From positions 19,276 through 83,275 of the forward strand of contig JAGWBJ010000005.1 of the NCBI GenBank assembly GCA_021295955.1: a stretch of 64,000 nucleotides of DNA. The letters run 5' to 3'. The notes beneath the pieces are model-generated. The model was given only the letters and a program-made list of their open reading frames with translations. It was not told where the DNA came from and ran no database searches. Position 1 is the first letter of the stretch, and the number at the start of each line of letters is the position of its first letter. This DNA is from Dehalococcoidia bacterium (GTDB lineage: Bacteria > Chloroflexota > Dehalococcoidia > Lucifugimonadales > JAGWBF01). The position numbers were made by a program, and so were the translations under genes. Shown one piece after another: positions 8,088 through 41,916 of the stretch.

Positions 8088-8108
8088 TGGACGGGGCTGA
8101 GGGCTGAC

Positions 8109-9374
8109 ATGACGATCACCGACCGGGTGCTGGAGCGAGTCGACCGCGCCGCCGTAGTGGAGCTTGCGTCGGACCTGGTCCGCATACCCAGCTTCAAGCC
8201 AGACGAGACCCCCGTGGCTCGGTACCTGGCCGGCTTCTTCGGCAGCCGCGGATACCAGGTCGAACTGCAGGAGGTGGAGCCCGGGCGCTTCCAGACGGTG
8301 GCCACTCTGGAGGGCTCCGGCGGCGGGCCCAGCCTGATGCTCAACGGCCACATAGACATCAACTCCCTAGGGATGCGGTGGCGCCGGGACCCGTGGACCC
8401 CCACCGTCGAGGGAGACCGCCTCTATGGCCACGGCGTGCAGAACATGAAAGGCGGCCTGGCCAGCGTCGTCATGGCCGCCGAGGCCCTCCGGCTCTCCCG
8501 GACCCGGCTGAAGGGGGACCTCGTGGTGGCCTGCGTGGTGGGGGAGACCCAAGGCGGAGAGGGCACCAAGCACCTCGTGGATACGGGCTTGCGGACGGAT
8601 ATGGCGGTGGTTGCCGAGCCCTTCGGCCTTGGCAACCTGGTCACGGTACACGCCGGCATCGTGCACATGGCCATTCACGCCTACGGGGTCACAGGCCACA
8701 TGGCGCGCAGCGACCACACGGTGCACGCCGTACGGAACATGTCCCGGATCATGGACACCCTGGAGAGGGTGGAGTTCACCTGCACCCCCAGGTCCGACAT
8801 GCCGGCTCTGCCCAAGCTCAACGTCGGCAGCATCATCGGAGGCCGCGGGCGGGAGTACGTGCTGGTGGAGCCGCCCTACGTCCCCGACCTGTGCACCATC
8901 ATCGTCGACGTCCACTTCCTCCCGGGGCAAACGGTGGAGGGCATCGTCGCGGACATCCGCCGGGCGCTGGACCCGCTGGCGGACGCGGACCCGGACCTGC
9001 GATACGAGATCGAGATACCTCCCCCGGACTCCTTCAGGGGCCGCCGCAGGCTGGTGATGGACCCCCTGGACGTCCCTCAGGATGAGTACATAGTCCAAGC
9101 CGTCGCCCGCAGCCACGAAAGGGTGACGGGGCGGCCTCCCTCCTCCATCGGGGCCATCATCCCCGACTCCTACAGCGCCAACGACACGTGCCATCTGTGG
9201 AAGGCCGGTATTCCCTGCCTCATCTACGGGCCGACGGTCGGCAGAGGGACCAGGGACGAGGACGACTCCTACGTGGTCATCAGCGATATGGTAGAGTGCA
9301 CCAAGGTCCTGGCGATTACCGCCCTGGAAGTGTGCAGCTCGGACCGGGCACGTGACGGCGCCGGGACAACCTGA
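8109..9374 (+). CDS. M20 family metallopeptidase (ArgE/DapE/carbamoylase-like)
   Basis: 421 aa with blocks LMLNGHIDI, DRLYGHGVQNMKGGLA and GETQGGEG typical of M20 dinuclear-metal hydrolases. Confidence 0.85.
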   Translation: MTITDRVLERVDRAAVVELASDLVRIPSFKPDETPVARYLAGFFGSRGYQVELQEVEPGRFQTVATLEGSGGGPSLMLNGHIDINSLGMRWRRDPWTPTVEGDRLYGHGVQNMKGGLASVVMAAEALRLSRTRLKGDLVVACVVGETQGGEGTKHLVDTGLRTDMAVVAEPFGLGNLVTVHAGIVHMAIHAYGVTGHMARSDHTVHAVRNMSRIMDTLERVEFTCTPRSDMPALPKLNVGSIIGGRGREYVLVEPPYVPDLCTIIVDVHFLPGQTVEGIVADIRRALDPLADADPDLRYEIEIPPPDSFRGRRRLVMDPLDVPQDEYIVQAVARSHERVTGRPPSSIGAIIPDSYSANDTCHLWKAGIPCLIYGPTVGRGTRDEDDSYVVISDMVECTKVLAITALEVCSSDRARDGAGTT

Positions 9375-13125: not shown

Positions 13126-13839
13126 ATGGAGACCCCTCTCGGAATCGAGTTCCACACCTTCTCCCTGGTCGGCCGGTGCGCCCGTACGGGAATGCTTGGC
13201 GTGGGCATCACCACCAGCGAGATCGCAGTCGGCTCCCGGTGCCCCTTCGTGCGGTCCAAGGTCGGGGCCGTCGCCACCCAGGCCATGACCAACCCCAGGC
13301 TCGGGACCGCGGCCCTGGATCTGCTGGCCGCGGGAGCGCAGGCGGTGGACGTGGTATCCAGGCTGGCGGAGGAGGACTCGCACATCGAGCGGCGGCAGAT
13401 CGGGGTCGTCGATGCCCTGGGCAGGTCCGCCGCCCGGACGGGGGCGCTGATCCACCCCTGGGCGGGCCACCTGACCGGCGACGGCTACGTCGCCATGGGC
13501 AACGGCCTGGTGGGAGAGGGCGTAGTCACCGCGATGGCCGAGGCCTTCCAGGGCTCTGCGGAAGAGGACCTGGAGGAGCGGCTAATGCGGGCGGTGGAGG
13601 CGGGTGAGGAGGCGGGAGGAGAGGCGGCGCCGTTCACCCCCTACCACTCGGCTGCCCTGGTCGTATTCGGCGACGACTCCTTCTCCCGGGTTGACCTGCG
13701 GGTCGACGACCACCCCGAGCCCCTGACGGAGCTCCGGCGGCTGCTGGAGCTTCTGAAGCCCAGGATCGATTACTACGCAATAAGGGCCAGGGACCCGGAC
13801 AGCGCCGTCAGGCCGGGACCGCCCCAGGACGCCAGGTGA
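13126..13839 (+). CDS. DUF1028 family protein (Ntn-hydrolase-like fold)
   Basis: TFSLVGRCARTGMLGVGITTSEIAVGSRCPFVRSKVGAVATQAMTNP matches the characteristic DUF1028 N-terminus. Confidence 0.8.
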   Translation: METPLGIEFHTFSLVGRCARTGMLGVGITTSEIAVGSRCPFVRSKVGAVATQAMTNPRLGTAALDLLAAGAQAVDVVSRLAEEDSHIERRQIGVVDALGRSAARTGALIHPWAGHLTGDGYVAMGNGLVGEGVVTAMAEAFQGSAEEDLEERLMRAVEAGEEAGGEAAPFTPYHSAALVVFGDDSFSRVDLRVDDHPEPLTELRRLLELLKPRIDYYAIRARDPDSAVRPGPPQDAR

Positions 13840-13901: not shown

Positions 13902-14804
13902 ATGGTCGAAGTCGGCTCGGGGCCATACAGGTACGACGTGATAGAGGGCTGGGGGGCGCTGCCCGAGGGGATCTCCTTCGGAGTCGTGACGGGAGTGGTC
14001 GTGGACTCCCAGGAGCGGGTCATCGTATGCCAGCAGCAGATGGAGCCCCCGGTGATCGTCTTCGACCGGGAGGGCAACTACCTCACATCCTGGGGCGCAG
14101 GTCTGCTTCCCGAGCCCCACACCCTGTTCATCGACTCCAATGACATCGTCTACGTTCCCGACAGAGCGGCCCACGTGGCGATGAAGTTCACCGTCGAGGG
14201 CGAGCCCCTGATGGAGCTGGGCAACCGGGGCCAAGCCTCGGACACGGGATGCGAGGAGCACGAAGGGCCGGTGCTGAGAGCCGGGGGTCCCTTCAACGTG
14301 CCGACGCGCATGTCCCCGTCTCCCTCGGGGGACATCTACGTCTCCGACGGCTACAGGAACTGCCGGGTCCACCGGTTCTCGCCCGACGGCCAGCTCATCT
14401 CGTCGTGGGGGAAACCGGGCGAGACCGCCCCGGGAGAGATCCGCTCCCCCCACTGCCTCTGGGTCATGCCCGATGGAAAGGTCTACGTCTGCGACCGGCT
14501 GAACAACCGGATACAGATCTTCTCGCAGACCGGGGAGTTCATCGACCAGTGGAAGGGCCTCGACTGGCCCACTGACCTGTTCGTGGACGCCAACGGGGAC
14601 TTCTTCGTGGCCGAGAGGCCCAACCACGAGGCCCAGACCAACTCGATGGTCGTGCGCGACGGCTCGGGGCGCGAGAAGGCCCGCTGGGACACGCCCCGGA
14701 ACCACCAGACGTGGCACGATTCCCACGGCAACATGTTCCTGGTCATGGGGCAGCTCGCCGAGCCCCGGGACAAGGCCATCTACAAGTACGTCAGGAAGAC
14801 GTAG
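13902..14804 (+). CDS. NHL-repeat six-bladed beta-propeller protein, peptidyl-alpha-hydroxyglycine lyase (PAL)-like
   Basis: ATG at 13902 follows AAGGAGGG. Repeated propeller blades are present. VSDGYRNCRVHRF and VCDRLNNRIQIF resemble PAL-type motifs. No signal peptide. Confidence 0.8.
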   Translation: MVEVGSGPYRYDVIEGWGALPEGISFGVVTGVVVDSQERVIVCQQQMEPPVIVFDREGNYLTSWGAGLLPEPHTLFIDSNDIVYVPDRAAHVAMKFTVEGEPLMELGNRGQASDTGCEEHEGPVLRAGGPFNVPTRMSPSPSGDIYVSDGYRNCRVHRFSPDGQLISSWGKPGETAPGEIRSPHCLWVMPDGKVYVCDRLNNRIQIFSQTGEFIDQWKGLDWPTDLFVDANGDFFVAERPNHEAQTNSMVVRDGSGREKARWDTPRNHQTWHDSHGNMFLVMGQLAEPRDKAIYKYVRKT

Positions 14805-16049: not shown

Positions 16050-16607
16050 ATGCCAGCGTCCCACCGGATCAAGATACAGCCCCTGACCGACGAGGCGTTT
16101 CGGCCCTTCGGCGAGGTCCTCAGCCGGAAGGAGTCTGAACCCTTCTTCCAGATGACCGACGGCAGGGTCCAGGGATGGAAAGCGGACTTCTCCTGCGAGG
16201 GTCCGACGGAGGTCGCCTATATGAAGGTGGACTTCCAGTCGTGGGTCGTGGAGGACATGGAGAGACACTTCCAGGTGACCCAGACTTTCATACCCCTGAA
16301 GGGGAAGCCGATGATCATGGTGGTTGCCCGGGCAACCGACCCCGACGACAGGGATGCCGTGCCGCCTCCCCAGGAGTACAGCGCCTTCTACATGGACGGC
16401 GCCCAGGGCGTGATGCTGGGGGTTGGGACGTGGCACGCCTCGGCCCGCCTGGCCCTCTACCCGCCCGACTGCGAGTTCGTCTACCTCTCCTCCAGCAACA
16501 CGACCCAGGACCTGAAGCGGGTCGCAGCGGAGGGAGGCGAGCCCAGGCTCAGCCAGGTGGTGAACTACCGGGAGCGGTTCGGCCAGGCCGTCGAGCCCGT
16601 GTGGTAG
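16050..16607 (+). CDS. ureidoglycolate lyase/hydrolase (AllA-like cupin) family protein
   Basis: ATG at 16050 follows GAAGGAGG. IKIQPLTDEAFRPFGEVL is the typical AllA-family N-terminus. The track ORF (from 15669) reads through the non-coding 37-bp array. Confidence 0.7.
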   Translation: MPASHRIKIQPLTDEAFRPFGEVLSRKESEPFFQMTDGRVQGWKADFSCEGPTEVAYMKVDFQSWVVEDMERHFQVTQTFIPLKGKPMIMVVARATDPDDRDAVPPPQEYSAFYMDGAQGVMLGVGTWHASARLALYPPDCEFVYLSSSNTTQDLKRVAAEGGEPRLSQVVNYRERFGQAVEPVW

Positions 16608-18764: not shown

Positions 18765-18979
18765 AGACCTCCCTCGTTCCGCCGGACTTCTATGCGCCCC
18801 TCAAGGAGGATTATAGCAACCGGCATCAAGGTTTGCACATGGTCTACCGTCAGACCGGGTGTCCGGCGGCGCCGTGAGAAAGAACGCTGGCGGCGGATGG
18901 CGGGCCGTTGCCGGTCACCGATAGCGGCGGCTTGTAATCTGTAACAGCCATGTACTACTATTGGTGCAGGAGGTGCCCT

Positions 18980-20122
18980 ATGGCAGAGAGCCCCCATCGT
19001 CAGGAGGCGGAGCATCACGACGATTCCGCCCATGATGATCCCTCAGGCCGCGCCCGTGCCGATCACGAAGGGCACGGCCACGACGAGCACGAGGGGCATG
19101 GCCATGCAGAGCACGAGGGGCACGGCCACGACGAGCACGAGGGCCACGGCCACGATGAGCACGAGGGCCACGACGAGCACGGTCACGCAGGGCACGACCA
19201 CGCCCACGACTTACGGGGCGCCAGCCGCCGCAGCCTGATCGTCGCCCTGGTGCTGATTAGCACCTACATGGTGGCGGAGGTGGTCGGCGGCGTCCTGTCA
19301 GGCAGCCTGGCGTTGCTGGCGGACGCCGGGCACATGCTCACCGACGCGGCGGCCATCACCATGGCCCTGGTGGCCATGTGGATTGCCCAGAAAGAGCCCT
19401 CGGTAGAGCGTACTTTCGGGTATCACCGCACCGAGATCCTCGCCGCGCTGGCCAACACCTTCGCCTTGTGGCTCATCGCCGGGTGGATCGTCTGGGAGGC
19501 CTACCACCGGGCCTTCAGGGAAGATGTCGAGGTGGTCGGCTTGCCGGTCCTCCTGGTAGGCATAGGCGGCTTCGTGATAAACGTGATCGCCGCATGGGTA
19601 CTGCACCGCTCCTCGGGGGAGAGCCTCAACGTGGAGGGCGCTTTCCAGCACGTGCTGGCGGACCTGCTGGGGTCCGTGGGCGTCATAATCTCTGCCGTAC
19701 TGATCATCGCATTCGAGTGGCACATAGCGGACCCGATTCTCAGCGTCGTCATCGCGGTCCTCATCGTGTACAACACCCGGAAGCTGATCGTCAACATACT
19801 TAATGTGCTGCTGGAGGGGAGCCCCGAGCGTATCGACGTTTACAAGCTGTGCCACGACATAGAGGAAATGGAAGGAGTTACCCTGATCCACGACGTTCAC
19901 GTCTGGACCATAACCTCAGGCAACGAGGCCTTCACCGCCCACGTGCTGTTGGACCCCGCCTACCAGGGCAACCTGGACGGGCTGATCAAAGGGATGCAAG
20001 ACCTGCTGCACAACGAGTATGGCATCGGCCACGCCACCATACAGGTGGAGCGGTCCGTGGAGGGTTGCACCGAGAACCACCACGTGGGCCACCTGCTGGC
20101 CTACGCCCGCTCTACGGGTTAA
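18980..20122 (+). CDS. cation diffusion facilitator (CDF) metal efflux transporter (CzcD/ZitB-like) with a His-rich N-terminal tail
   Basis: ATG at 18980 lies 6 nt after AGGAGG. CDF core motifs present (LLADAGHMLTDAAA, FGYHRTEILAALAN, HVLADLLGS, HDVHVWT). N-terminal HEGHGHDE octapeptide repeats. Confidence 0.92.
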   Translation: MAESPHRQEAEHHDDSAHDDPSGRARADHEGHGHDEHEGHGHAEHEGHGHDEHEGHGHDEHEGHDEHGHAGHDHAHDLRGASRRSLIVALVLISTYMVAEVVGGVLSGSLALLADAGHMLTDAAAITMALVAMWIAQKEPSVERTFGYHRTEILAALANTFALWLIAGWIVWEAYHRAFREDVEVVGLPVLLVGIGGFVINVIAAWVLHRSSGESLNVEGAFQHVLADLLGSVGVIISAVLIIAFEWHIADPILSVVIAVLIVYNTRKLIVNILNVLLEGSPERIDVYKLCHDIEEMEGVTLIHDVHVWTITSGNEAFTAHVLLDPAYQGNLDGLIKGMQDLLHNEYGIGHATIQVERSVEGCTENHHVGHLLAYARSTG

Positions 20123-20160
20123 GAGAGACCGCAGCGGGCCAGCCCGTTGCGGTCTGAGGC

Positions 20161-20207
20161 AAAAGCAAAAGCCCCGCCGGACTGCAAGTCCGGCGGGGCC
20201 TCTTTTC
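20161..20207. terminator. bidirectional intrinsic terminator between convergent genes
   Basis: A 13-bp perfect stem GCCCCGCCGGACT (20171-20183) / AGTCCGGCGGGGC (20187-20199) with a 3-nt loop, flanked by AAAAGCAAAA upstream and CTCTTTTC downstream. A second long hairpin lies at 20126-20155. Confidence 0.8.
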
Positions 20208-20224
20208 AGGTCGGAAGGCTTCGT

Positions 20225-20464
20225 CTAGTGGGCGTGGCCCGCGTGTTCGTGGACGTGGTGCTCGTGCTCGTCACACTCGTGAAGGTCGTGCACGTGCCCG
20301 GGCTCATCCCCGTGGTGCTCGTGGGTGTCGCACTCGTGGGAGAGATGGTCGTGGGACTCAGTATGATGCTCGTGGGCATCGCACTCGTGCTCGGCGTGCA
20401 TGTGGCCGGGTTCGTTACCGTGGTGTTCGTGGGTATCACACTCGTGGACGTCGTGTTTCTGCAA
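20225..20464 (-). CDS. histidine/cysteine-rich repeat protein, putative metal-binding (79 aa)
   Basis: TTG start at 20464 lies 10 nt after GGAGGT, and an in-frame stop sits just upstream. Four repeats begin HECD(T/A/E)HEHH. 27 His and 4 Cys in 79 residues. Confidence 0.65.
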   Translation of the reverse strand: MQKHDVHECDTHEHHGNEPGHMHAEHECDAHEHHTESHDHLSHECDTHEHHGDEPGHVHDLHECDEHEHHVHEHAGHAH

Positions 20465-20494
20465 CCTTGCTCATACCTCCTAAAGTGATACTCT

Positions 20495-20545
20495 ATTCTC
20501 AACTACGGATGGGTCGCATGTCAAGCACCTCGGGCCCATGCGACC
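20495..20545 (-). promoter_or_regulatory. candidate promoter with a flanking 9-bp inverted repeat (operator) for the His-rich gene
   Basis: On the minus strand: TTGACA (plus coordinates 20519-20524), an 18-nt spacer, GAGAAT (20495-20500). Inverted repeat GGTCGCATG (20512-20520) / CATGCGACC (20537-20545) brackets the -35. Confidence 0.4.
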
Positions 20546-22027: not shown

Positions 22028-22057
22028 TTGACACTCCACGGCGCCCGCAACTATACT
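22028..22057 (+). promoter_or_regulatory. candidate sigma-70-type promoter upstream of DUF1800 copy 1
   Basis: TTGACA (22028-22033), an 18-nt spacer, TATACT (22052-22057), about 98 nt before the ATG at 22156. Confidence 0.45.
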
Positions 22058-22155
22058 CCCTACAGCACCCACACGTGTGCCATAGTGTTACGCAGACCGC
22101 ATCCATGCGTCGATAGGGGGCATGGGCAGCGGGGGTCGATAGCGGGAGGTAGGAG

Positions 22156-23592
22156 ATGGCGCAGGAGCAGATCGCGTTGATGGCCCACCTTATGCGCCGG
22201 GCCGGTTTCGGGGCTAACAGGGACGAGCTGGAACGGTACGCGGCCCAGGGATACGAAGCGACGGTGGAGGACCTGCTCCATCCAGAGAAGGCCCCGCCTG
22301 CCCTGGAGGACGAGGACCTGATCAAGCGGTATCACGTCGACGAGAACGGCCTCCAGCCCCTGGATAGCTGCCAGACCTACTGGATATACCGCATGATCAA
22401 CACCAGGCGGCCCCTGGAGGAGAAGATGGCCCTCTTCTGGCACGGCATATTCGCCACGGGCTACACCAAGCTCAACCAGCCCAAGGCCATCCTCAACCAG
22501 CTTGGCATGTTTCGCCGGCACGGGCTGGGCAAGTTCAGCAACCTGCTGGTGGAGCTGTCCAAGGACCCGGCCATGATCTTCTGGCTGGACAACAAGGACA
22601 GCCACCGTTACGAGCCCAACGAGAACTACGGGCGCGAGCTGCTGGAGCTGTTCTCCATGGGTGTCGGCAACTACACCGAGCAGGACGTGTTCGAGGCGTC
22701 CAGGGCCTTCACCGGATGGACCATCCGGAACGCGGAGCTCCACACCTCCCGGGTGTCGCGGGACTCGGTCTGGCCCTACGGACGGCTGGACTGGCAGTTC
22801 GAGTACCGGGAAGACGACCACGACGACACAGAGAAGACGTTCCTGGGGCATACGGGGAACCTCAACGGCGAGGACGTGATTGACATAATCTGCCGCCAGG
22901 ACGCCGCCGCCCGGTTCATCTGCCGCCACCTGTACAACTTCTTCGTGGCCGACGAGCCGCAGGTGCCCGCTTGGGAGACGGTGCCTCCCCGGGACCCCGA
23001 AGCGGTACGGACGCTGACGGAGGCGTACTTCGAGCACGATTACGAGATACGGCCGGTGCTCCGGGTGTTGTTCAACTCGGACTTCTTCAAAGAGGCCGTC
23101 TTCCAAAAGATCAAGAGCCCGGCGGAGCTGGTGGCGGGCACCGCGCGGATGTCCGGCGGGTACGGCTTTCCGGCCCTCAAGGACATCGACCTCTCTCAGA
23201 AGGCGACCTTCATGGGCCAGAGCCTGCTGGACCCGCCCAGCGTGGAGGGATGGCACACGGGCACCGAGTGGATATACACCGGGGCCCTGGTCGACCGGGT
23301 GAACTTCGCCGTAGACGAGGTTGGCGACGCCACGCGGCCCGGAGTTCGCGCCATCCTCGACCGGGTACGGGGCCGTGGGGAGGACCTTTCGCCCGCCGAG
23401 CTGGTTGACGTGTGCCTGGACCTGCTGGGGCCGATGGACGTGTCGGACCGGACACGCCGCGAGCTGGTCGACCAGGCCTCCAGGCGGGGCGGCGCCCGGT
23501 TCGGCTCCGCCGACGGTGACGAAGATGCCACCAGGACGGTGCTGGAGGTCCTTCAGACCATCGTATCCACCCGCGAGTACCAGCTCGCCTAG
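22156..23592 (+). CDS. DUF1800 domain-containing protein (copy 1)
   Basis: Contains LMRRAGFG, LFWHGIFATGY, IFWLDN and NENYGRELLELFSMGVGNYTEQDV. No N-terminal signal sequence. Confidence 0.88.
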   Translation: MAQEQIALMAHLMRRAGFGANRDELERYAAQGYEATVEDLLHPEKAPPALEDEDLIKRYHVDENGLQPLDSCQTYWIYRMINTRRPLEEKMALFWHGIFATGYTKLNQPKAILNQLGMFRRHGLGKFSNLLVELSKDPAMIFWLDNKDSHRYEPNENYGRELLELFSMGVGNYTEQDVFEASRAFTGWTIRNAELHTSRVSRDSVWPYGRLDWQFEYREDDHDDTEKTFLGHTGNLNGEDVIDIICRQDAAARFICRHLYNFFVADEPQVPAWETVPPRDPEAVRTLTEAYFEHDYEIRPVLRVLFNSDFFKEAVFQKIKSPAELVAGTARMSGGYGFPALKDIDLSQKATFMGQSLLDPPSVEGWHTGTEWIYTGALVDRVNFAVDEVGDATRPGVRAILDRVRGRGEDLSPAELVDVCLDLLGPMDVSDRTRRELVDQASRRGGARFGSADGDEDATRTVLEVLQTIVSTREYQLA

Positions 23593-23671
23593 GGGCTGAC
23601 CGCCACGCCGGGGGGGACCTGTTGCAACCCGGCGCCACCGGGCGCCGTGGGGGTACGAGGAGGTGCGCAAG

Positions 23672-24685
23672 GTGCTATCCTTTCGCTACAGCCACACCGT
23701 TGGTTTCTATGCGCTGAACGGCCGCGGCTTCAACAACCCCGTGGACGTGGCCCTGGGACGGGACGGCAAGATGTTCGTCGCCAACCGGGCGGGGGCGGAC
23801 GTGGCCGCGAGGATGTTCTACAAGCGCATAACCGTATGCAATGTGGACGAGGAGTACTTCGGGGAGTTCAGCAGCGGCGGCACCGAGGACGGCCAGATTA
23901 TGTGGCCGGTCTCCATTGCCGTCGACCCGGATGAGAACATCTACGTGGCCGACGAGGCCCTGCAGCGCATCTCCGTCTTCGACAGGGACTGGAACTTCGT
24001 GCGAAAGTGGGGCTCCCAGGGGAGCGGAGACGGCGAGTTCGACCGGCCCGCGGGAATGGTGCTGCACCCGGACGGCAACCTGCTGGTGGCGGACGCCCTG
24101 AACCACCGGGTACAGCGGTACACGCCCGAGGGCCGCTTCCTGGGCGCCTTCGGCGGGCCGGGCGCCGGAGACGGCCAACTCCAGTTCCCGTGGGGAGTGG
24201 CCGTGGACCGGGCCGGGAACATCTACGTGTGCGACTGGCGCAACGACCGGGTCCAGAAGTTCGATGCCTCCGGGGAGCATCTCGCCACCTGGGGAGGCCC
24301 GGGAAGTGGCGACGGTGAATTCAACAGGCCCGCCGGCGTGGCGGTGGACGGGGACGGGCTGGTGTACGTGGCGGACTGGGGCAACGAGCGGGTCCAGGTG
24401 CTGACCCCGGACGGCGGCTTTCTGGCCAAGTTCCGGGGAGAGTCGGGGGTCTCCCAATGGGGGATGGACTACTTCATCGCCAACGAGGACGAGCTGGAGG
24501 AGCGGCACAGGGCCAACATGGAGCCCGGCCTGGACCCGTGGGCCCGGGACATACCCGCCGAGCAGTCGGCCAGTGTCGAGAAGCTGTTCTGGGGCCCGTC
24601 TTCCGTGAAAGTGGATGACCAGGGCAGGATCTACGTCGTAGAGGTCTGCCGCGCCCGCATCCAGGTGTACGTGAAGGAGCCCTAG
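23672..24685 (+). CDS. NHL-repeat beta-propeller protein (partner of DUF1800 copy 1)
   Basis: The GTG at 23672 (MLSFRYSHTVG, parallel to MLTYRYSHTIG of the paralogue) lies 9 nt after GAGGAGG; the track start at 23663 is an upstream in-frame GTG. Recurring GDGEF(D/N)RPAG and VAD..N.RVQ blades. Confidence 0.85.
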   Translation: MLSFRYSHTVGFYALNGRGFNNPVDVALGRDGKMFVANRAGADVAARMFYKRITVCNVDEEYFGEFSSGGTEDGQIMWPVSIAVDPDENIYVADEALQRISVFDRDWNFVRKWGSQGSGDGEFDRPAGMVLHPDGNLLVADALNHRVQRYTPEGRFLGAFGGPGAGDGQLQFPWGVAVDRAGNIYVCDWRNDRVQKFDASGEHLATWGGPGSGDGEFNRPAGVAVDGDGLVYVADWGNERVQVLTPDGGFLAKFRGESGVSQWGMDYFIANEDELEERHRANMEPGLDPWARDIPAEQSASVEKLFWGPSSVKVDDQGRIYVVEVCRARIQVYVKEP

Positions 24686-27285: not shown

Positions 27286-28122
27286 ATGCCCACGATGGTC
27301 GGAATGGGCGACTACGTCTACGAGTACCATGGAGACTGGGCCCGCCTTCCTGACGGACAGAGCTTCCAGACTCCCAGCGCGGTGGCCGTGGACTCCAGGG
27401 ACCGGGTGTACGTGTTCCAGAGGCAGGGGCCTCCCATCCTCGTCTTCGACCGGGACGGGTACCTGCGGGAGTCGTGGCCCCGGCGGCCGGGAGAGCTGGA
27501 GGACGCCCACTTCGTCTACGTCAGCCCCGACGACCACTTGTTCCTTACCGACCGGGACTCCCACCAGGTGCTCAAGTACACCACCGACGGGAAGCTGGTG
27601 ATGGCCCTGGGCAAGAGGTACCAAGCGGCCCTCCAGGCCCCCTTCAACCACCCGGCCGACGTGGGCGTGGCCCCCAACGGCGACCTGTACATCGCCGACG
27701 GGTACGGCAACTCCTCCGTCCACCGGTTTTCCAGCGACGGGGTCTACATCTCCTCCTTCGGCAGCCCCGGCACCGGGCCGGGGCAGTTCATGGTCCCCCA
27801 CGGCGTACGCGTGTCGAATGACGGCCGAGTGTTCGTCACCGACCGCGAGAACAACCGGGTGCAGGTCTTCGACTCCCGCGGCGAGTTCCTGACCCAGTGG
27901 ACTGGCCTCTACCGGCCCGCGGGCATACACATAGACGCCGCCCAGAACGTCTACGTCACCGACCACATCCCAAGGTTCAGCGTCCTGAACCTGGAGGGCG
28001 AGCTGCTGGCCCGCGGGCGCACCTTCGAGATCGGGCACAACATCTACAGCGACTCCAGGGGCGATCTCTACGCCGTGGACGTCCAGCTCTCCCGGGTCCA
28101 GAAGTTCGTGAAGGTGTCCTGA
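27286..28122 (+). CDS. PAL-like NHL-repeat beta-propeller protein, tandem paralogue 1 of 3 (278 aa)
   Basis: Contains IADGYGNSSVHRF and VTDRENNRVQVF. No signal peptide. Same length as the next two genes. Confidence 0.88.
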   Translation: MPTMVGMGDYVYEYHGDWARLPDGQSFQTPSAVAVDSRDRVYVFQRQGPPILVFDRDGYLRESWPRRPGELEDAHFVYVSPDDHLFLTDRDSHQVLKYTTDGKLVMALGKRYQAALQAPFNHPADVGVAPNGDLYIADGYGNSSVHRFSSDGVYISSFGSPGTGPGQFMVPHGVRVSNDGRVFVTDRENNRVQVFDSRGEFLTQWTGLYRPAGIHIDAAQNVYVTDHIPRFSVLNLEGELLARGRTFEIGHNIYSDSRGDLYAVDVQLSRVQKFVKVS

Positions 28123-28133
28123 AGGAGGCGCCA

Positions 28134-28970
28134 ATGGCCGTAGTCACCGGCACCGGCAACTACATGTACGAGCACCACCCCAACTGGGCCAGGCTTCCCC
28201 GGGGCCAGGACTGGCAGGGCCCCAGCTCCATCGCCGTCGACTCCAAGGACAGGGTGTACGTCTTCCAGCGTGGCGGACCTCCCATCCTGATATTCGAGCG
28301 CGAGGGGGACTTCGTCGGAGGCTGGCCCCGCAGGCCGAATCAGCTCGAGGACGCCCATCACATTTACATCAGCCCCGACGACTTCGTCTACCTGGCCGAC
28401 CGGGACGCCCACCAGGTGCTCAAGTTCACCACCGACGGGGAGCTGGTCATGGCCCTGGGGACCAGGCACCGTGCCTCACTCCAGGCGCCCTTCAACCACC
28501 CGTCGGATACCTGCGTGGCGCCCAACGGGGAGATATACATATCGGATGGGTACGGCAACTCCAGCGTCCACCGCTTCACTCCCGACGGCGAGCACATCGC
28601 CTCCTTCGGAAGTCCAGGAAGGGGGCCAGGGCAGTTCTGCGTGCCCCACAGCATCCGCGTCTCCGGCGACGGCCGCGTCTACGTGGCCGACCGGGAGAAC
28701 GACCGGGTCCAGGTGTTCACCCCCGAGGGGGAGTTCATCTCCCAGTGGACGGACCTGAAGTCCCCCATGGGGGTGCAGATCACGCCGGACAACGCGGTCA
28801 TAGTCACCGACCAGGTGCCTCGGTTCACGGTATTCTCCCTGGACGGCGACCTGCTGGCCCGGGGCCGGACCTTCGAGAATTGTCATAACGTCTTCACCAA
28901 CTCCAGGGGAGACTTCTACGGCGTGGACGCCCAACGGCGCCAGATCCAGCGGTTCGTCAAGATAACGTAA
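28134..28970 (+). CDS. PAL-like NHL-repeat beta-propeller protein, tandem paralogue 2 of 3 (278 aa)
   Basis: The ATG at 28134 lies 5 nt after AAGGAGG. Contains ISDGYGNSSVHRF and VADRENDRVQVF. The upstream part of the track ORF (27897-28133) is an out-of-frame overlap with paralogue 1. Confidence 0.88.
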   Translation: MAVVTGTGNYMYEHHPNWARLPRGQDWQGPSSIAVDSKDRVYVFQRGGPPILIFEREGDFVGGWPRRPNQLEDAHHIYISPDDFVYLADRDAHQVLKFTTDGELVMALGTRHRASLQAPFNHPSDTCVAPNGEIYISDGYGNSSVHRFTPDGEHIASFGSPGRGPGQFCVPHSIRVSGDGRVYVADRENDRVQVFTPEGEFISQWTDLKSPMGVQITPDNAVIVTDQVPRFTVFSLDGDLLARGRTFENCHNVFTNSRGDFYGVDAQRRQIQRFVKIT

Positions 28971-29002: not shown

Positions 29003-29839
29003 ATGCCCATCGTCACCGGCACCGGCAACTACATGTACGAGCACCATCCCAACTGGGCCAAGCTCCCGCGCGGGCAGGACTGGCAGGGCCCCAGCTCCAT
29101 CGCCGTCGACTCCAAGGACCGGGTGTACGTCTTCCAGCGGGGCGGCCCCCCCATCCTTATATTCGAGAAGGACGGCGAGTTCGTGGGCGGCTGGCGGCGG
29201 AAGCCGGGCCAGCTGGACGACGCTCACCACATCTACATCAGCCCCGACGACTTCGTCTACCTGGCCGACCGAGACGCCCACCAGGTGCTCAAGTTCACCA
29301 CCGACGGGGAGCTGGTCATGGCCCTGGGGACCAGGCACCGGGCGTCGTTGCAAGCGCCATTCAACCACCCTTCGGACGCCTGCGTTGGGCCCAACGGCGA
29401 CATCTTCGTTTCCGACGGCTACGCCAACTCCAGCGTGCACCGCTTCAGCCCCGACGGCAAGCACATCGCCTCCTTCGGAAGCCCGGGCAGCGGCCCCGGA
29501 GAGTTCCGTGTGCCCCACAGCGTGCGGGTCTCCAGCGACGGCCGCGTCTACGTGGCCGACCGGGAGAACAGCCGGGTCCAGGTGTTCACCTCCGAGGGGG
29601 AGTTCCTCAGCGAGTGGACGGACATGAAGTCGCCCATGGGAGTGCAGATCACCCCGGACAACGCCGTAATCGTCACGGACCAGGTGCCGCGGTTCAGCGT
29701 CTTCTCTCTGGACGGCGAACTGCTGGCCCGCGGCCGCACCTTCGAGCAGTGCCACAACGTCTTCACCAACTCCGTTGGCGACTTCTACGGCGTGGACACC
29801 TCGCGGCGGCAGATCCAGCGGTACGTGAAGATCACCTGA
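29003..29839 (+). CDS. PAL-like NHL-repeat beta-propeller protein, tandem paralogue 3 of 3 (278 aa)
   Basis: The ATG at 29003 lies 7 nt after AGGAG. Contains VSDGYANSSVHRF and VADRENSRVQVF. Very similar to paralogue 2. Confidence 0.88.
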   Translation: MPIVTGTGNYMYEHHPNWAKLPRGQDWQGPSSIAVDSKDRVYVFQRGGPPILIFEKDGEFVGGWRRKPGQLDDAHHIYISPDDFVYLADRDAHQVLKFTTDGELVMALGTRHRASLQAPFNHPSDACVGPNGDIFVSDGYANSSVHRFSPDGKHIASFGSPGSGPGEFRVPHSVRVSSDGRVYVADRENSRVQVFTSEGEFLSEWTDMKSPMGVQITPDNAVIVTDQVPRFSVFSLDGELLARGRTFEQCHNVFTNSVGDFYGVDTSRRQIQRYVKIT

Positions 29840-32727: not shown

Positions 32728-33612
32728 TCAAACGGCGGGGGGAGTCGAGCCGGCCGGGACATCCCCGGGGGGGCGGGCCGTGCGGCGCCTTCGGGACGCC
32801 CCGAACTGGCGTCTCAGGCCCGAGTAAACCAGGGCGGCGACGAAGAGGGCCGCCGACAGGAGGACCACGCTGGCGCCCGAGGAGACGTCGATCCACCAGC
32901 TCACGTATATGCCCGTCAACCCGCAGAATGCCCCCACGCCCGTGGACAGGACCACCATCCGGCGGAAGCTGTTGGTCAGGAGCCGCGCCACGATGGGGGG
33001 GATCACGATGGCCGCCGCGATGAGGGTGGCCCCCAGCACCTGCAGCGAGACTACGATGGTGGCTGCCAGCACGAGGGAGAACATGGCGTCTATCCAGCCG
33101 GTGGGCACGCCGTAGAACCGGGCCACCTCCTGGTCGAAGGTGGCGAAGAGCAGCAGCTTGAAGCCCAGGAAGACGATCACCACCGCGGCCGCGCTGACGG
33201 CCGCGATGGCCGCCAGGTCCCCCGGGGAGACCCCCAGGATGTTGCCGAAGAGGGCCGCCTCGAAGTCCCTGGTGAAGGTCTTGTACCGGCTGATAACGGC
33301 CACGCCGATGGCGAAGCTCGAGGTGGTTATGATGCCTATGGCCGCGTCGGCTCCGATCTGCCTCTTCCGGGTCGTGAGGGTGATGAGCAGGGCCGTCAGG
33401 AACCCCCAGATGCTGGCCCCCACGAAGAACCCCATGAAGGGTATCACGTAGCTGACCACGGCCCCCCCGAAGACCGCGTGGGCCATGCCGTGGCCGATGT
33501 ACGACATGCGCCGGAGGACTATGTAGACCCCCATCAGGCCGCACAGTCCGCCGGCCAGGGTCGTGGCCGCTATTCCCAGGACGAAGAAGTCGTACCGGAA
33601 GGGATCAAACAC
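32728..33612 (-). CDS. metal ABC transporter permease (ABC-3, ZnuB/MntB/TroC-like)
   Basis: 294 aa, highly hydrophobic, containing MSYIGHGMAHAVFGG. 8-nt overlap with the upstream ATPase gene. Confidence 0.88.
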   Translation of the reverse strand: MFDPFRYDFFVLGIAATTLAGGLCGLMGVYIVLRRMSYIGHGMAHAVFGGAVVSYVIPFMGFFVGASIWGFLTALLITLTTRKRQIGADAAIGIITTSSFAIGVAVISRYKTFTRDFEAALFGNILGVSPGDLAAIAAVSAAAVVIVFLGFKLLLFATFDQEVARFYGVPTGWIDAMFSLVLAATIVVSLQVLGATLIAAAIVIPPIVARLLTNSFRRMVVLSTGVGAFCGLTGIYVSWWIDVSSGASVVLLSAALFVAALVYSGLRRQFGASRRRRTARPPGDVPAGSTPPAV

Positions 33613-34483
33613 CGTCGGGTCCCTCCCCTATTCCCTCCTCCTGCTGTAGAGGCTGGCCCTCTCCGTTGGAGCCCCCGTTGGACCCAAAATGATGGGGGCT
33701 CTCGGCCACCAGGGTCATGCCCTGGTACCGGATCACGGGCATCTCGGCGCCGTACGTCAGGCGGAAGGTCTCCTCGGTGAACACCTGGGAGGGCGGCCCC
33801 TGGTCCACCAGTCGTCCGTTGAGGCACACCACCCACGGCAGGTGGGCGGCCACGGAGTTGATCTCGTGGGTCGTCATCACTATGGTCACGCCCTGGTGGT
33901 TCAGGTCGTGGAGGAGGTGCATCATGTCGTCCCGGGTCTTGATGTCCACCCCAGAGGTGGGCTCGTCCAGGAGCAGCAGCGACGGGCTGCTGACCAGGGC
34001 CCTGGCGAGGAACGCCCTCTGCTGCTGCCCGCCGGACAGCTCCTGGATGTGGCGCCCGGTCAGGTGGGAGATGCCCAGGCGCTCCAGCATCTCCAGGGCC
34101 AGCTTGCGCTCCCGGCGCCCGTACCACGGGAACAGCAGGTTCTCCATGGTGCGCCCCATCATGACGACCTCTTCCACCGTGACGGGGAAGTTCCAGTCGA
34201 TGGTCTCAAGCTGGGGCACGTAGCCGGCCCTGGGCCTGCGCCGGTCGGTGGGCGTCCCATCGACCAGGACCCTGCCCTCGTAGACATCCACCGCCCCCAG
34301 TATGGACCGCAGCAGGGTGGTCTTTCCCGACCCGCTGGGCCCCAGCAGCCCTACGAACTCGCCCGGGGCCACCGACAGGCTGACGTCGGACAGGACGGGC
34401 TGGCCGTCGTAGCCGCAGGTGAGGCCCTGGACCTCGATGATGGGCTCGGCGGCGGGGTGCTGGTGTGGAAACGGGTGAAGCAT
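33605..34483 (-). CDS. metal ABC transporter ATP-binding protein (ZnuC/MntA/TroB-like)
   Basis: Walker A GPSGSGKTTLL, signature LSGGQQQRAFLARAL, Walker B LLLLDEPTSGVD. Confidence 0.9.
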   Translation of the reverse strand: MLHPFPHQHPAAEPIIEVQGLTCGYDGQPVLSDVSLSVAPGEFVGLLGPSGSGKTTLLRSILGAVDVYEGRVLVDGTPTDRRRPRAGYVPQLETIDWNFPVTVEEVVMMGRTMENLLFPWYGRRERKLALEMLERLGISHLTGRHIQELSGGQQQRAFLARALVSSPSLLLLDEPTSGVDIKTRDDMMHLLHDLNHQGVTIVMTTHEINSVAAHLPWVVCLNGRLVDQGPPSQVFTEETFRLTYGAEMPVIRYQGMTLVAESPHHFGSNGGSNGEGQPLQQEEGIGEGPDGV

Positions 34484-34505
34484 CTGTATCCCCCTGTGAC
34501 TCGGG

Positions 34506-35525
34506 CTACTGGGGGTACCTTGCCTTGCTGGCGCCCTCGAACACGGGCCCGGGGTCGAACCCGGCCAGGGCGTCGGCGCTTCCTCCCAGGGCCCCGATCA
34601 TTACCTCCATGTTCTGCAGCATGAGGCCCAGGTACGAGTGCCTGGGACCGCCAGGCTCTCCCGGCAGGTCGTCGTCGGCAAGGCCGTCCACGAAGGCCGC
34701 GCCGCCCTCTTTGGCGATCCGCTCCATCACATCACTGGGGAACACCTCGGAGCCGAACACCGCCGGCACCCCCAGCTCTCCCACCTGGTCGATGAGCCGT
34801 CCCACCTCCCTGGCCGAGGGCTCGGAGAAGTCCGAGGGTTGGACGGCGCCGACCACCTCCATGCCGTAGCGGCCGGCGAAATAGGCCCACGAGTCGTGGT
34901 AGGTGAGGAGACGGCGGTTGGCGGCGGGGACCGTCTCCACGGCGGCGGCGATGCGTCCGTCCAGATCCTCTATGCGTGCCTCGAAGGCGTCGTAGTTTTC
35001 GCTGTAGTAGGCCTCGTTCCGCGGGTCCAGCCGCACCAGCTCGTCCCGGACCAGCTCGGCGTACCGGAGGCCGAGAAGCGGGTCCGGCCACAGGTGGGGG
35101 TTGGGATGCCCGCCGGACTCGGGAAAGGAGAAGTCGAACCGCCACTCCTCACGGGTGACCGTCCGCTCCCCCAGGGACAGAATGACGGCGTCGCTTCGCT
35201 TGCCTGCCTTTGCCAGCTCCAGGGTGGGCTCCTCCAGGAAGAGGCCGTTGAGGACTATGAGGTCCGCTTCGGCCAGGAGCCGGGACACCGAGGGGGCGGG
35301 CTCGAAGGTGTGGGAGTTGACCCCCTCGGGCACGACACCCTCCAGGTCTATCCGGGCCCCGCCGATGTTCTCGACGATGCTGGTGATGGGTGACACGGTG
35401 GTTATCACCTTCAGGGGGGCGGCGTCCGCCCCATCGCCTGGGGGCGGCGCCGTCGACTCGGCCCCGCAGCCCAGCAACGCCAGGAGCAGGAAGGGGACGA
35501 CGAATAGGGCCGGCCGGCGGATCAC
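34506..35525 (-). CDS. metal ABC transporter substrate-binding lipoprotein (ZnuA/TroA family)
   Basis: The GTG at 35525 gives (M)IRRPALFVVPFLLLALLGCGAES, a lipoprotein signal with a lipobox Cys. The track start (TTG at 35624) lies upstream of a good promoter -10 and is therefore unlikely. Confidence 0.85.
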   Translation of the reverse strand: MIRRPALFVVPFLLLALLGCGAESTAPPPGDGADAAPLKVITTVSPITSIVENIGGARIDLEGVVPEGVNSHTFEPAPSVSRLLAEADLIVLNGLFLEEPTLELAKAGKRSDAVILSLGERTVTREEWRFDFSFPESGGHPNPHLWPDPLLGLRYAELVRDELVRLDPRNEAYYSENYDAFEARIEDLDGRIAAAVETVPAANRRLLTYHDSWAYFAGRYGMEVVGAVQPSDFSEPSAREVGRLIDQVGELGVPAVFGSEVFPSDVMERIAKEGGAAFVDGLADDDLPGEPGGPRHSYLGLMLQNMEVMIGALGGSADALAGFDPGPVFEGASKARYPQ

Positions 35526-35603
35526 GATACGGTACGGCTTGGCGCTAGTCCGCAAATATAGCCTAATGCGATTATTGGCATGTGCAACGCCTTTCGCCTG
35601 CCG

Positions 35604-38366: not shown

Positions 38367-39185
38367 TCATCCCCGGGGCTGCCAGCTCACCACCATGGGG
38401 GTGAGCTCAGGCGTGCCCCGTATCCGGAAGATGCCGTCCTCTTCCACCAGCAAGCCCGGCAGGCTCTCCTCCAGCAGTTTCTGCTTCTCGCCTCCGGGAG
38501 CCAGGTACAGACGCGCTGTAAGCTGCCCCACGGCGTCCTCTACGGAGTCGAAGCCCCTGGAGGGGTGGGGCGGGAGGGGGTCGAACCGGGCGTCCACGCC
38601 CATCTCCTGCAGGACCTCTCTGAGCTCCGGGACGGCGGGAAGCTGCAGCCGCTCTTCTCCGTGGACAAGCTCCCACAGGGGCGAGTTCTGGAACTGGGGC
38701 GATCGGTCGTACAGGACGACCTGCACCTTGCGGCGGGCATGGTCGTTCAGCTTCCTCACGAATACGTCGACGTCGTGGACCACGTACAGTACGTGACAGC
38801 ACAGGACCACGTCGGCCGGCTCCACCTCCGCGTCCTCCCACCGGGCCTCGACCAGGGACACGTTGCCGATGCCGTGGGTCCGGGCCTCGTCCAGGAGGAC
38901 CGAGCCCATGCTCTGGGAGGGTTCCACCGCTACTACCTGGCCGCAACTGAGGGCCAGGGCCAGGGCCAGCCTGCCCCCTCCGGCGCCCACGTCCATCACC
39001 CGGTCTTCGGGCCTGACATCCTCCAACAGCCGGTCCAAGAGCTCATCGTCGGTCCTGAGCGGGTCGGCCCGAAAGTTCTCGGCGTAGGGCTTCCAGTGAT
39101 CGGAGGGAGGGGCCTCCCACCGGGCCCTGTCCGATTGGGCGTGCTCGGCCTCGACCATCCGCTGCCAGCGTTCCGCAGCGTTCAC
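38367..39185 (-). CDS. class I SAM-dependent methyltransferase
   Basis: Motif [16 protein letters not shown]. The GTG at 39185 overlaps the upstream stop (GTGA). The track ORF extension to 39440 overlaps the MsrB domain region in another frame. Confidence 0.82.
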
Positions 39186-40399
39186 AGGGACCCCTCGCGC
39201 ACGAACCTCATGGAGATGGAGTTGACGCAATGACGGGTGTTGGTCCCGGTAAGCCCCTCTCCCACGAACACGTGACCCAGGTGCCCGCCACAGGCGGCGC
39301 ACTCGATCTCCGTCCGGAATCCGTCCGGATCGGGCAAACGGTTCACCGCTCCGGGCACCTCCCTGTCGAAGGCGGGCCAGCCGCAACGGGCGTCGAACTT
39401 GTCGGCCGACCTGTACAACTCGGCGTCGCACCTGCGACACACGTAGGTGCCCGGCTCGTAGAAGTCGTCGTACTCCCCCGTGAAGGGAGGTTCCGTGCCC
39501 TTGCGCTCGATTACGTACCGCTCCCGGTCGGACAGGGGGTTGTAGCTTGGCTTCCGCGTCTCCATCAGCCAGCCACGGACCGCCGCCAGGAAGCCTCCCG
39601 GGTTATCCTCGAACACCATGTGGGCCGCCTGCGGGACCTCGGCCAGCCGGCCGTCGGGCAGTACGTCCAGCATGCGCCGGGCAACCTCGGGAGCCAGCAG
39701 GTCCGTTTCCACGCCGCGGACTATCAGGGTGGGACACTCGACCGACGCCAGCAGGGGCCACATGTCGGGAGGCTGGGCTCCCGTGCCGTGCCGCACCTGC
39801 TCTCGGATGGCCAGGTCGTACAGCCAGCCGATCTTTCCGCCGTCCATCTTCCGCGTCGAGTGGGCGAGCCTGCGGCGCAGAAGGGGCTCCGGTGTAAGGG
39901 GGTTCTCGGCGCTCATGTACTCGACCACGTCCTCGAAGGAGTCGAACTCCTCGGGCACGGCCACCATCTCGGCGCGTATCCGGTCGATGCCCCGCTGGTC
40001 GGACTCGGCGCCGACGTCCACCATGACCAGCTTCTCCACTCTGTCGGGGAACCGCGCGGCGAAGTTGACCGCATTCTGGCCTCCCATGGAGTGCCCCACC
40101 AGCACGAAGGGCTCCAAAGCGAGTGCCTCGCTGAGGGCCTCCAGGTCGGCCACGTAGGCCTGGGTGCTGTAGTCGCCGTCCGAGGCCCAATCGCTGCCGC
40201 CTCGGCCCCGCTGGTCCACCGCCAGGACGTGGTAGTCGCCGCACATGGCCGAAGAGAAGTCGTCCCACGAGTGGCGATGGCCCCGCAGTCCGTGGAGCAG
40301 CACCATGGGGGTCTTCCCTTCAGTGCCCCAGTCCAGGTAGCTGAGCCTGATGCCATTGGCGGTGACGGTCCTCTCCCGGGCCTGCTTCAGGGTGGTCAT
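39182..40399 (-). CDS. msrB: alpha/beta hydrolase fused in frame to peptide-methionine (R)-S-oxide reductase MsrB
   Basis: From the ATG at 40399: [25 protein letters not shown]...VGHSMGG...FLAAVRGWL, followed directly by [11 protein letters not shown]...CRRC...[12 protein letters not shown]...RHCVNS (MsrB zinc CxxC pairs and catalytic Cys). No stop codon between the two domains. Confidence 0.8.
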
Positions 40400-41260: not shown

Positions 41261-41698
41261 CTAGCCCAAATGGACGATCTCGACGTCGCCCCAGTGGCGC
41301 TGGAGATACTCGGCGACCAACCGGCGGTGACACCGGTCGGGTCTGTCCTCACTGCACAGCAGGCATCCGTTGGAGACCGTCCTCTTTATCGGCATCTTCC
41401 CAACTCGCCGCTGGTCCATGAGGGCGAGGAACCGGCGTTCGTAGGTGGCCCAGTCGCACTGGCCATTTCGATAGGCCCGCAGCAGCTCCTTGGTGGGGGC
41501 CAGCTCGGGCAAATGGACGTATCTCATCCGGCATATCTTATCTACCAGGTATTCGAGGTCGCCTTTCTTGGTGAATCCGGCCAGCTGGGAGAGGTTACTC
41601 ACCCGCACGTCCACCAGGCGCTTGGCCCCCGACCCGCGAATCAGCTCGAAGAAGTCGGAGGCGGACTTCTTCGTGAACCCGATGGTATACACTTTCAC
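41261..41698 (-). CDS. DUF488 domain-containing protein
   Basis: From the GTG at 41698: VKVYTIGFTKKSASDFFELI...LLCSEDRPDRCHRRLVAEYL, typical of DUF488. Confidence 0.8.
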   Translation of the reverse strand: MKVYTIGFTKKSASDFFELIRGSGAKRLVDVRVSNLSQLAGFTKKGDLEYLVDKICRMRYVHLPELAPTKELLRAYRNGQCDWATYERRFLALMDQRRVGKMPIKRTVSNGCLLCSEDRPDRCHRRLVAEYLQRHWGDVEIVHLG

Positions 41699-41841: not shown

Positions 41842-41916
41842 CGGCCCCGATTCAGTAGATGCACTTTATAATGTGCTAGCATTTGCCGCGATTCGGCGGG
41901 AAGGCGGGTCTGTAAC

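Follow-up and report, generated by a model that had tools for sequence, protein, structure and literature searches.

What becomes of a DUF1800 protein when the gene next to its own encodes an NHL-type beta-propeller and not the DUF1501 partner of the canonical operon? This arrangement occupies positions 22156–24685 of a 64,000-nt stretch of Dehalococcoidia DNA (contig JAGWBJ010000005.1; hereafter the window), which has ~67% G+C and holds 56 genes. An earlier reading of the letters, made without database searches (the sequence-only reading), had described a non-canonical, probably cytoplasmic DUF1800 plus propeller module in which the propeller stands instead of DUF1501. We report that this module is real and conserved, that a second, paralogous pair overlooked by that reading lies at 41917–44366, and that the propeller was added to a DUF1501-containing system before DUF1501 was lost. 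We tentatively propose that the two proteins of the window would form a stoichiometric cytoplasmic DUF1800–NHL complex, representing the DUF1501-less branch of a cytoplasmic DUF1800–DUF1501–NHL system and tied to neighbouring C–N hydrolases. We regard this explanation as possible rather than established.

The two pairs consist of the following genes:

22156–23592, + strand: DUF1800 copy 1, 478 amino acids (aa), PF08811 E = 1.6e-104, all-alpha, no signal peptide
23672–24685, + strand: NHL propeller copy 1, six-bladed, 337 aa from GTG 23672
41917–43350, + strand: DUF1800 copy 2, 477 aa, PF08811 E = 3e-106, 356.5 bits
43344–44366, + strand: NHL propeller copy 2, 340 aa, TTG start

Pfam searches bore out both family assignments of the sequence-only reading. 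DUF1800 copy 1 matches PF08811 with 350.9 bits (cut-off 26.1) over profile positions 1–419 of 419, the domain starting at residue 11, and all the motifs quoted earlier are present; in NHL copy 1, five repeats are scored by PF01436 (E = 3.6e-41). The mechanical open reading frame (ORF) of the latter begins at GTG 23663 and yields 340 aa, and GTG 23672 follows a GGAGG sequence (23657–23661) by ~10 nt. This second start gives the 337 aa and the 79-nt gap from DUF1800 previously proposed, and agrees with the lengths of homologues. In the second pair, which a crude gene call of the whole window brought to light, the DUF1800 and NHL proteins are 67% and 59% identical to their copy 1 counterparts, respectively, and the TTG start of NHL overlaps the DUF1800 stop by 7 nt. 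DUF1800 genes number exactly two in the window, NHL-propeller genes six.

We judged export signals from N-terminal hydrophobicity (19-residue Kyte-Doolittle mean) and inspection for twin-arginine (Tat) motifs, an approach that made signals visible on canonical partners (loci L082 and L083) and on several DUF1800 representatives. No N-terminal hydrophobic segment or Tat signal was evident in either protein of either window pair, in keeping with the earlier claim; the maximum means are 1.02 for DUF1800 copy 1 and 0.51 for NHL copy 1. The arginine pair of LMRRAGFG belongs to the DUF1800 family's own conserved motif, and no hydrophobic stretch comes after it. Also correct was the statement that the 64 kb lack a DUF1501 gene: two hidden Markov models (HMMs), built from 3 and 69 DUF1501 sequences and searched against the six-frame translation of the window, returned a best E of 3, whereas true DUF1501 genes elsewhere score 1e-90 to 1e-195.

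To what extent is the pair conserved? The window DUF1800 matches more than 8000 clusters at 90% identity, all 8000 scored passing E <= 1e-5, and the NHL partner matches 6239 such clusters; the best 120 DUF1800 matches are 470–494 aa long and 67–92% identical to the window protein. An exact look-up of the window protein found it in no public assembly on record; a scan of one genome per species provided 314 relatives, of which we kept the best 80 as two-gene loci. Nearly all are Dehalococcoidia metagenome-assembled genomes (MAGs), the remainder being a SAR202 bin, a Nitrospinota MAG, two Chloroflexota MAGs and Candidatus Entotheonella TSY1. Carriers of the cassette run into the thousands among uncultured bacteria of soil, ocean and sponges. 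Of the 79 related loci with downstream DNA, 78 have an orthologous NHL gene directly 3' of DUF1800 in the same orientation, its product being 52–94% identical to that of the window, and the 80th locus stops at a contig edge. The adjacency on which the sequence-only reading had staked its module is thus preserved among relatives. According to our own gene calls, the gap between both genes has a median of ~20 nt, with several overlaps of 1–4 nt. Two MAGs (DAOUJG and CBDBMB) carry a DUF1800 copy 97% identical to the window's with the same gene order, which places the window in their Dehalococcoidia lineage. One locus holds two pairs in tandem (L065, 3337–8520). In another (L170, 6571–7620), gene calling breaks the NHL gene into two pieces of 115 and 208 aa, owing to either a frameshift or an assembly error.

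Among the 80 loci, a single MAG contributes up to 6 copies (CBDBMB; 4 in DAOUJG). Pairwise distances of DUF1800 and NHL correlate with r = 0.94 over 72 loci (permutation maximum 0.14), and paralogues within a genome are 62–72% (DUF1800) and 47–64% (NHL) identical. Collectively, this co-divergence and the paralogue identities indicate that both genes have long been copied and passed on together.

Did the propeller take the place of DUF1501? The DUF1800–DUF1501 pair has been described as a co-transferred operon (PMC5122149), and this agrees with three plasmid loci in which DUF1800 is followed by an annotated DUF1501, those of Miltoncostaea (Actinomycetota), Chondrinema (Bacteroidota) and Novosphingobium (Alphaproteobacteria). 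In two of these three, DUF1800 is devoid of a signal and the downstream DUF1501 bears a twin-arginine signal, a split that, as far as sequences tell, fits export as a complex. Among DUF1800 representatives, some have a Tat or general secretory (Sec) signal of their own and many have none.

In the two-gene clade, DUF1501 is absent within 6 kb from 78 of the 80 loci. Only L073 among the 80 has a DUF1501 gene, signal-less and Pfam-confirmed, directly upstream of the pair, in the order DUF1501–DUF1800–NHL. A metagenome scan with this protein as query retrieved at least 589 relatives, 80 of which were kept as three-gene loci, and uncovered a sister clade with the order DUF1800, signal-less DUF1501, NHL. 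There, DUF1800 is directly 5' of DUF1501 in all 63 loci with enough flank, and NHL is 3' in 52 of 53. The DUF1800 proteins of these loci are 47–59% identical to the window's, and their NHL proteins 33–46% over the full length. Relative to canonical members, two-gene and three-gene DUF1800 proteins fall into two clean, separate clades, with identities of 70% within the two-gene clade (which includes the window protein), 61% within the three-gene clade, 54% between them and 30% to canonical DUF1800. The signal-less DUF1501 retains the family motifs GGxDxxN, DTH, SEFGR and GTDHG; its fold we take, from the Pfam clans, to be that of the alkaline-phosphatase/sulfatase superfamily. At least two genomes carry both cassette types on the same contig (CAXXGY, L025; OZ242283, L067), their three-gene clusters comprising a Fur-family regulator, DUF1800, DUF1501 and NHL. 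No description of this three-gene cassette was found in the literature searched.

These data divide the earlier claim of an NHL instead of a DUF1501. It stands for the window, whose cassettes are without DUF1501, and fails for the sister clade and L073, which have both; a DUF1501 gene in an operon with DUF1800 elsewhere in the genome, which would speak against the claim, does occur in the relatives CAXXGY and OZ242283. Since the sister clade, L073 and the dual-cassette genomes combine DUF1501 with NHL, the propeller did not simply take over from DUF1501: it was acquired by a cytoplasmic DUF1800–DUF1501 system, and the window's clade later lost DUF1501.

We then asked what the two proteins look like. 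The AlphaFold2 (AF2) model of DUF1800 copy 1 is all-helical (predicted template-modelling score 0.84; predicted local distance difference test, pLDDT, 77). Foldseek returned no relative of it in the PDB (best E = 0.83), and neither phmmer nor a 66-sequence profile gave a PDB sequence below E = 0.1. Ten long DUF1800 representatives contain only the DUF1800 domain, apart from EF-hand/dockerin in one secreted protein. Across 103 diverse representatives, a conservation of 90% or more is reached at ~27 polar or aromatic positions, and the window DUF1800 keeps all of these residues: H11, R15, W76, E89, W95, H96, D137, D145, N155-E156-N157, R160, E161, E164, Y173, E175, D177, H222-D223, K227, W366, W372 and R381. 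The corresponding motifs (HLxRRxGFG, WH, NENYxRExxELF, YxExD, HD and PPxVxGW) are present, and the 66-sequence alignment agrees. Two insertions set this protein apart. One, at residues 268–281 (QVPAW..PPRDP), is common to the two-gene and three-gene clades, and canonical members lack it; the other, at ~191–209, reaches its greatest length in the two-gene clade. Within the clade both show high conservation, and the first in particular falls in a low-confidence loop of the AF2 model.

NHL copy 1 is modelled with six four-stranded blades (pLDDT 89.7) and has an insertion of ~50 residues before the closing strands, consisting of helices (265–284) and a disordered loop (285–307), which recurs in shorter form in three-gene NHL proteins. 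Because the insertions of both proteins are present only where DUF1800 and this NHL co-occur, we infer that they may constitute a mutual docking interface. The best matches of the propeller in both sequence and fold are the NHL domains of Thin, TRIM2/3/71, Brat and PknD (sequence E down to 4.6e-91; Foldseek E down to 6.5e-29, target-normalised template-modelling score, TM, ~0.9), and most positions invariant in its subfamily belong to the structural NHL motif. The lyase PAL (3fvz) is matched with E = 1.5e-9 in sequence and E = 2.3e-17 in fold, where it ranks 22nd (TM 0.67 query-normalised, 0.69 target-normalised). Pfam SGL (PF08450) scores 57.5 bits, above its cut-off, in three partial stretches that lie under the much stronger NHL match. 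A PAL-type lyase activity of the partner was considered and down-weighted, as binding-type NHL domains match far better.

Four further NHL genes of the window went unmentioned in the sequence-only reading. Three tandem paralogues of 278 aa each (27286–28122, 28134–28970 and 29003–29839, + strand) share 62–66% mutual identity (tblastn on L002), have no signal peptide and are without the C-terminal insertion. The trio is kept in place in the 88–97% identical relatives L002, L003 and L168, is flanked on the opposite strand by a radical-SAM gene upstream and a luciferase-like monooxygenase gene downstream, and matches PAL (3fvz) with E = 9e-19, more strongly than the DUF1800 partner does. A further NHL-repeat protein of 300 aa (13902–14804) follows a DUF1028 gene (13126–13839, + strand).

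Which genes accompany the pairs? Around the two window copies, the following features were mapped:

22028–22057, + strand: sigma-70-like promoter candidate of copy 1, TTGACA-18-TATACT (11/12 match, to consensus only), ~100 nt 5' of DUF1800
24748/24754–26157, + strand: amidase-signature gene, PF01425 E = 5.5e-111, 62–68 nt from NHL copy 1
41812–41841, + strand: sigma-70-like promoter candidate of copy 2, TTGACG-18-TACAAT, 75 nt upstream of DUF1800
44501–46549, + strand: hydantoinase/oxoprolinase A, Pfam Hydantoinase_A and Hydant_A_N
46546–48570, + strand: hydantoinase/oxoprolinase B, Pfam Hydantoinase_B

Copy 2 is thus followed directly by the hydantoinase A/B genes in the same orientation. A search for terminator-like sites found none on the + strand between DUF1800 copy 1, NHL copy 1 and the amidase gene, and none in 41600–48800. 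The commonest words 5' of related cassettes are TATAAT-like and TTGACA-like 7-mers. Rfam yielded no match in the window or in the leaders of either DUF1800 gene. The word TCGATAG occurs at 22110–22116, 22136–22142 and 41823–41829 (+ strand), within 100 nt 5' of the two DUF1800 genes, with 6 copies in the window against 3.7 expected. It was dropped as an operator motif upon finding that it is absent 5' of all related cassettes, 97%-identical orthologues included, and its position near the window genes is probably a coincidence.

The location directly upstream of an amidase gene, which the sequence-only reading had pointed out, is genuine in the window and characteristic of its orthogroup, and does not extend to the family. 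We defined the orthogroup of copy 1 as loci with DUF1800 proteins at least 71% identical to the window's (8 loci including the window). All 8 have an amidase gene beside the pair, though its place and direction differ. In the window, L002, L003 and L168 it comes after the pair on the shared strand; in L004, L005 and L170 it lies upstream and points away from the pair, as it does in L169, where an isochorismatase gene intervenes. These amidases share 57–94% identity with the window's, and L004 and L005 are paralogues that belong to the genomes of L002 and L003. As the linkage has been kept through rearrangement and duplication, these data argue for a functional tie of amidase and pair in the window's orthogroup only.

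Elsewhere the surroundings vary. Counting outwards from the pair, we found 83 Pfam families among 78 downstream (+1) neighbours and 68 among 79 upstream (−1) neighbours; 126 neighbours of three-gene cassettes comprise 134 families. The flanking genes are of the catabolic kinds customary in these lineages, such as luciferase-like monooxygenases, amidohydrolases, hydantoinases, alpha/beta hydrolases, dehydrogenases and transporters. A search for a conserved third gene gave none in these heterogeneous contexts (78 two-gene and ~60 three-gene loci), and the neighbour counts of APH and 2-hydroxyacid-dehydrogenase genes were set aside as stemming from sets of orthologous loci and not from the family at large. 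At least nine three-gene cassettes (L087, L089, L090, L091, L157 and L164–L167) are directly preceded on the same strand by a Fur-family gene, ~100–150 nt 5' of the DUF1800 start. It encodes 140–170 aa with HHHPH and two CxxC motifs, and NCBIfam ranks it as PerR, then Fur, all below cut-off. No such gene was found near any two-gene locus or in the window.

The explanation that we prefer, namely a cytoplasmic complex of both proteins, would unfold as follows. Two- and three-gene branches descend from the classical exported pair of DUF1800 and Tat-signal DUF1501. Within the complex, DUF1800 is the presumptive functional core, because every family-invariant polar residue is kept, and the propeller a likely binding or scaffolding subunit, because TRIM NHL domains of the binding type are its nearest matches in both sequence and fold; the subunits would dock through the insertions specific to NHL-associated DUF1800 clades and to this NHL subfamily. 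The cassette has been duplicated many times as a unit, its paralogues settling beside different catabolic genes. Amide- or lactam-type compounds are suggested as substrates on which the pair may act, or which it may prepare, because both window copies sit upstream of amide-bond hydrolases, i.e., the amidase and hydantoinase A/B. Besides the conservation, tight spacing and co-divergence of the pair, we count in favour of this explanation the canonical pairs that look as if exported as complexes and the high-level expression of DUF1800 proteins in Entotheonella (PMC12981691). What the data show is the cassette, its conservation and co-inheritance, the lack of export signals, its evolutionary position and the amidase link of the orthogroup; physical contact of the two proteins, their division of labour and the class of substrate are conclusions drawn from these.

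Several observations weigh against this proposal. Flanking genes are heterogeneous across the whole family, and amidases are not enriched family-wide (~13 of 80 loci, compared with 2 among the window's 56 genes). For the hydantoinase link, no orthologue of the second pair closer than 69% identity was found on which to check it. One locus (L058, 6001–7434) has an intact DUF1800 gene without an NHL neighbour, followed by a RidA-like and an amidohydrolase gene, and no DUF1800–NHL fusion protein appears among the matches listed. DUF1800 is without a structural or sequence relative of known function, the role of functional core being read from conservation. Furthermore, related genomes also hold a signal-less DUF1501, so the pair may not be autonomous.

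This last point leads to an alternative in which the pairs need a signal-less DUF1501 encoded elsewhere, the two-gene cassettes serving as extra specificity modules of a single catalytic DUF1501 that they would share. Dependence in trans would suit L073, a member of the window's own clade with DUF1501 directly upstream, the contigs CAXXGY and OZ242283 with both cassette types, and the family motifs that the signal-less DUF1501 keeps. We nonetheless consider it unlikely, since the DUF1501 genes found each accompany a DUF1800 and an NHL of their own from the distinct sister clade, the gene is missing from nearly all two-gene neighbourhoods and throughout the window, and the co-divergence of each DUF1800 with its own NHL points to self-contained pairs. 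Just as unlikely, in our judgement, are two independent enzymes that catalyse consecutive steps and share an operon for co-regulation, with the propeller as a PAL- or SMP-30-like lyase or lactonase. Six-bladed propellers do include true enzymes, the matches to PAL and SGL are in line with this, and another 3 + 1 stand-alone NHL genes of the window lack DUF1800 partners; PAL releases a primary amide, and a PAL-like lyase would by that reaction supply a substrate suited to the neighbouring amidase. However, the closest matches by far are the non-catalytic domains of TRIM71, Thin, TRIM2/3 and PknD, the NHL invariants are mostly structural, and tight spacing, overlaps and strict one-to-one co-duplication are more typical of subunits.

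A non-catalytic role, by which the proteins would bind, store or buffer metal or protect from oxidative stress, is brought to mind by the Fur-family gene upstream of nine three-gene cassettes, by TonB-dependent receptors near the canonical loci L083 and L084, and by family invariants that are mostly Asp, Glu and His. In addition, two DUF1800 proteins rank within the top 15 by abundance in the arsenic/barium-mineralising vesicle fraction of Entotheonella (PMC12981691). Yet the Fur-family gene occurs at only ~9 of ~63 three-gene loci and at none of the two-gene kind, the vesicle proteins may be of another than the two-gene type, and fold and profile searches of the PDB brought up no metal-binding motif or fold, all of which makes such a role quite unlikely. 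Finally, NHL genes are common here (6 in 64 kb), and the adjacency could in principle be fortuitous or an annotation artefact. The census refutes this: DUF1800 and NHL are neighbours in 78 of 79 loci from at least four lineages, the window itself contains another, paralogous pair and the partners co-diverge, so that we give chance practically no credence.

The cytoplasmic complex can be pictured more boldly, in a version that we deem very unlikely when taken as a whole. DUF1800 and NHL, plus DUF1501 in the sister clade, would make up a cytoplasmic multi-subunit enzyme with a fold that lacks a solved relative. It would act early in the breakdown of refractory organic matter of the N-substituted amide or lactam type and pass its product to the amidase or hydantoinase, e.g., after an N-dealkylation analogous to the PHM/PAL route that leaves a primary amide; the numerous paralogues in single genomes of SAR202-type Dehalococcoidia and Entotheonella would then reflect substrate diversification. 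Were this true, it would disclose a new enzyme family relevant to carbon and nitrogen turnover in soil and ocean.

Regardless of this version, the findings bear on a large family (13,331 clusters at 50% identity) without assigned function or solved structure; the literature searched assigns no function to DUF1800 and draws no link between DUF1800 and NHL. A big conserved cytoplasmic branch is now recognised in it, with DUF1501 lost and a dedicated NHL instead, and the three-gene sister bridges both arrangements. Being soluble and signal-less, this version of the DUF1800 system should express easily, and the natural comparison with and without DUF1501 separates the roles of the components. Amidase, hydantoinase and Fur-family regulator are concrete neighbours to guide assays, and SAR202 strains are now cultivated (PMC10444878), which makes tests in a native host possible if they carry the cassette.

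Other features of the window were recorded alongside. It is unusually rich in C–N bond hydrolases and lyases: at 4284–9374 (+ strand), a fused hydantoinase A + B (1267 aa, 5-oxoprolinase-like architecture) is followed by an M20 peptidase/carbamoylase-type gene, and further members, besides the separate hydantoinase A/B pair and the amidase next to copy 1, are a ureidoglycolate lyase (16050–16607), an amidohydrolase (53719–55341, − strand) and another amidase (61646–63022). The frame at 39182–40399 (− strand) joins an alpha/beta-hydrolase with a C-terminal SelR/MsrB, an uncommon fusion. A cation-diffusion-facilitator (CDF) transporter (18950–20122, + strand) has a long His-rich N-terminal repeat of ~50 residues (HEGHGHD/HEGHGHA), and a ZnuABC-type uptake system is encoded at 32728–35555 (− strand). 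Between the CDF transporter and an aminotransferase gene, overlapping low-complexity ORFs on both strands (20147–20502), valine-rich on + and threonine/serine-rich on −, are probably non-coding.

How, then, does the pair compare with known systems? With the canonical DUF1800–DUF1501 operon it shares the DUF1800 family, all invariants included, and a layout in which DUF1800 leads and the partner gene follows at once in the same orientation. It differs in that the partner is an NHL protein, in that the window proteins are without the Tat or Sec signals (canonical partners carry twin-arginine signals), and in a DUF1800 that is ~30% identical to canonical members and has two insertions that they lack. 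The three-gene cassette is much closer, with a sister DUF1800 clade (54% identity), an orthologous NHL bearing the same C-terminal insertion, no signals on any component, and occurrence in the same lineages and at times the same genomes. Unlike it, two-gene cassettes have no DUF1501, are multi-copy and never stand beside a Fur-family regulator. TRIM-NHL, Thin and PknD propellers provide the best sequence and fold matches and likewise have six NHL blades; they are, however, parts of larger eukaryotic proteins or form an extracellular sensor domain, with RNA or protein as ligands, whereas the window NHL is a stand-alone cytoplasmic bacterial protein with an insertion of ~50 residues. PAL (3fvz) is a six-bladed NHL-type propeller as well, with a much weaker match, overall similarity being all that was compared.

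The paralogue expansions of catabolic enzymes in SAR202/Dehalococcoidia (PMC5395668; PMC10444878) resemble the cassettes in affecting the same lineages and in leaving many old paralogues per genome amid genes for monooxygenases, amidohydrolases and dehydrogenases. DUF1800 and NHL proteins, for their part, are at most putative enzymes, and neither came up when the papers on these expansions were searched by text. In Planctomycetes and Verrucomicrobia, DUF1501 modules have PSCyt/PSD1 partners, and some clusters include a PSCyt1/WD40 propeller (PMC3542564). These modules are likewise multi-copy and unite a DUF1501-type system with a large partner, the most complex clusters adding a beta-propeller. 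Their proteins are exported or membrane-targeted, the partner is a PSCyt/PSD1 protein with cytochrome-c motifs and not DUF1800, and the propeller is of the WD40 and not of the NHL type. For a DUF1501 module that includes a propeller, the PSCyt1/WD40 protein of these clusters is the closest precedent.

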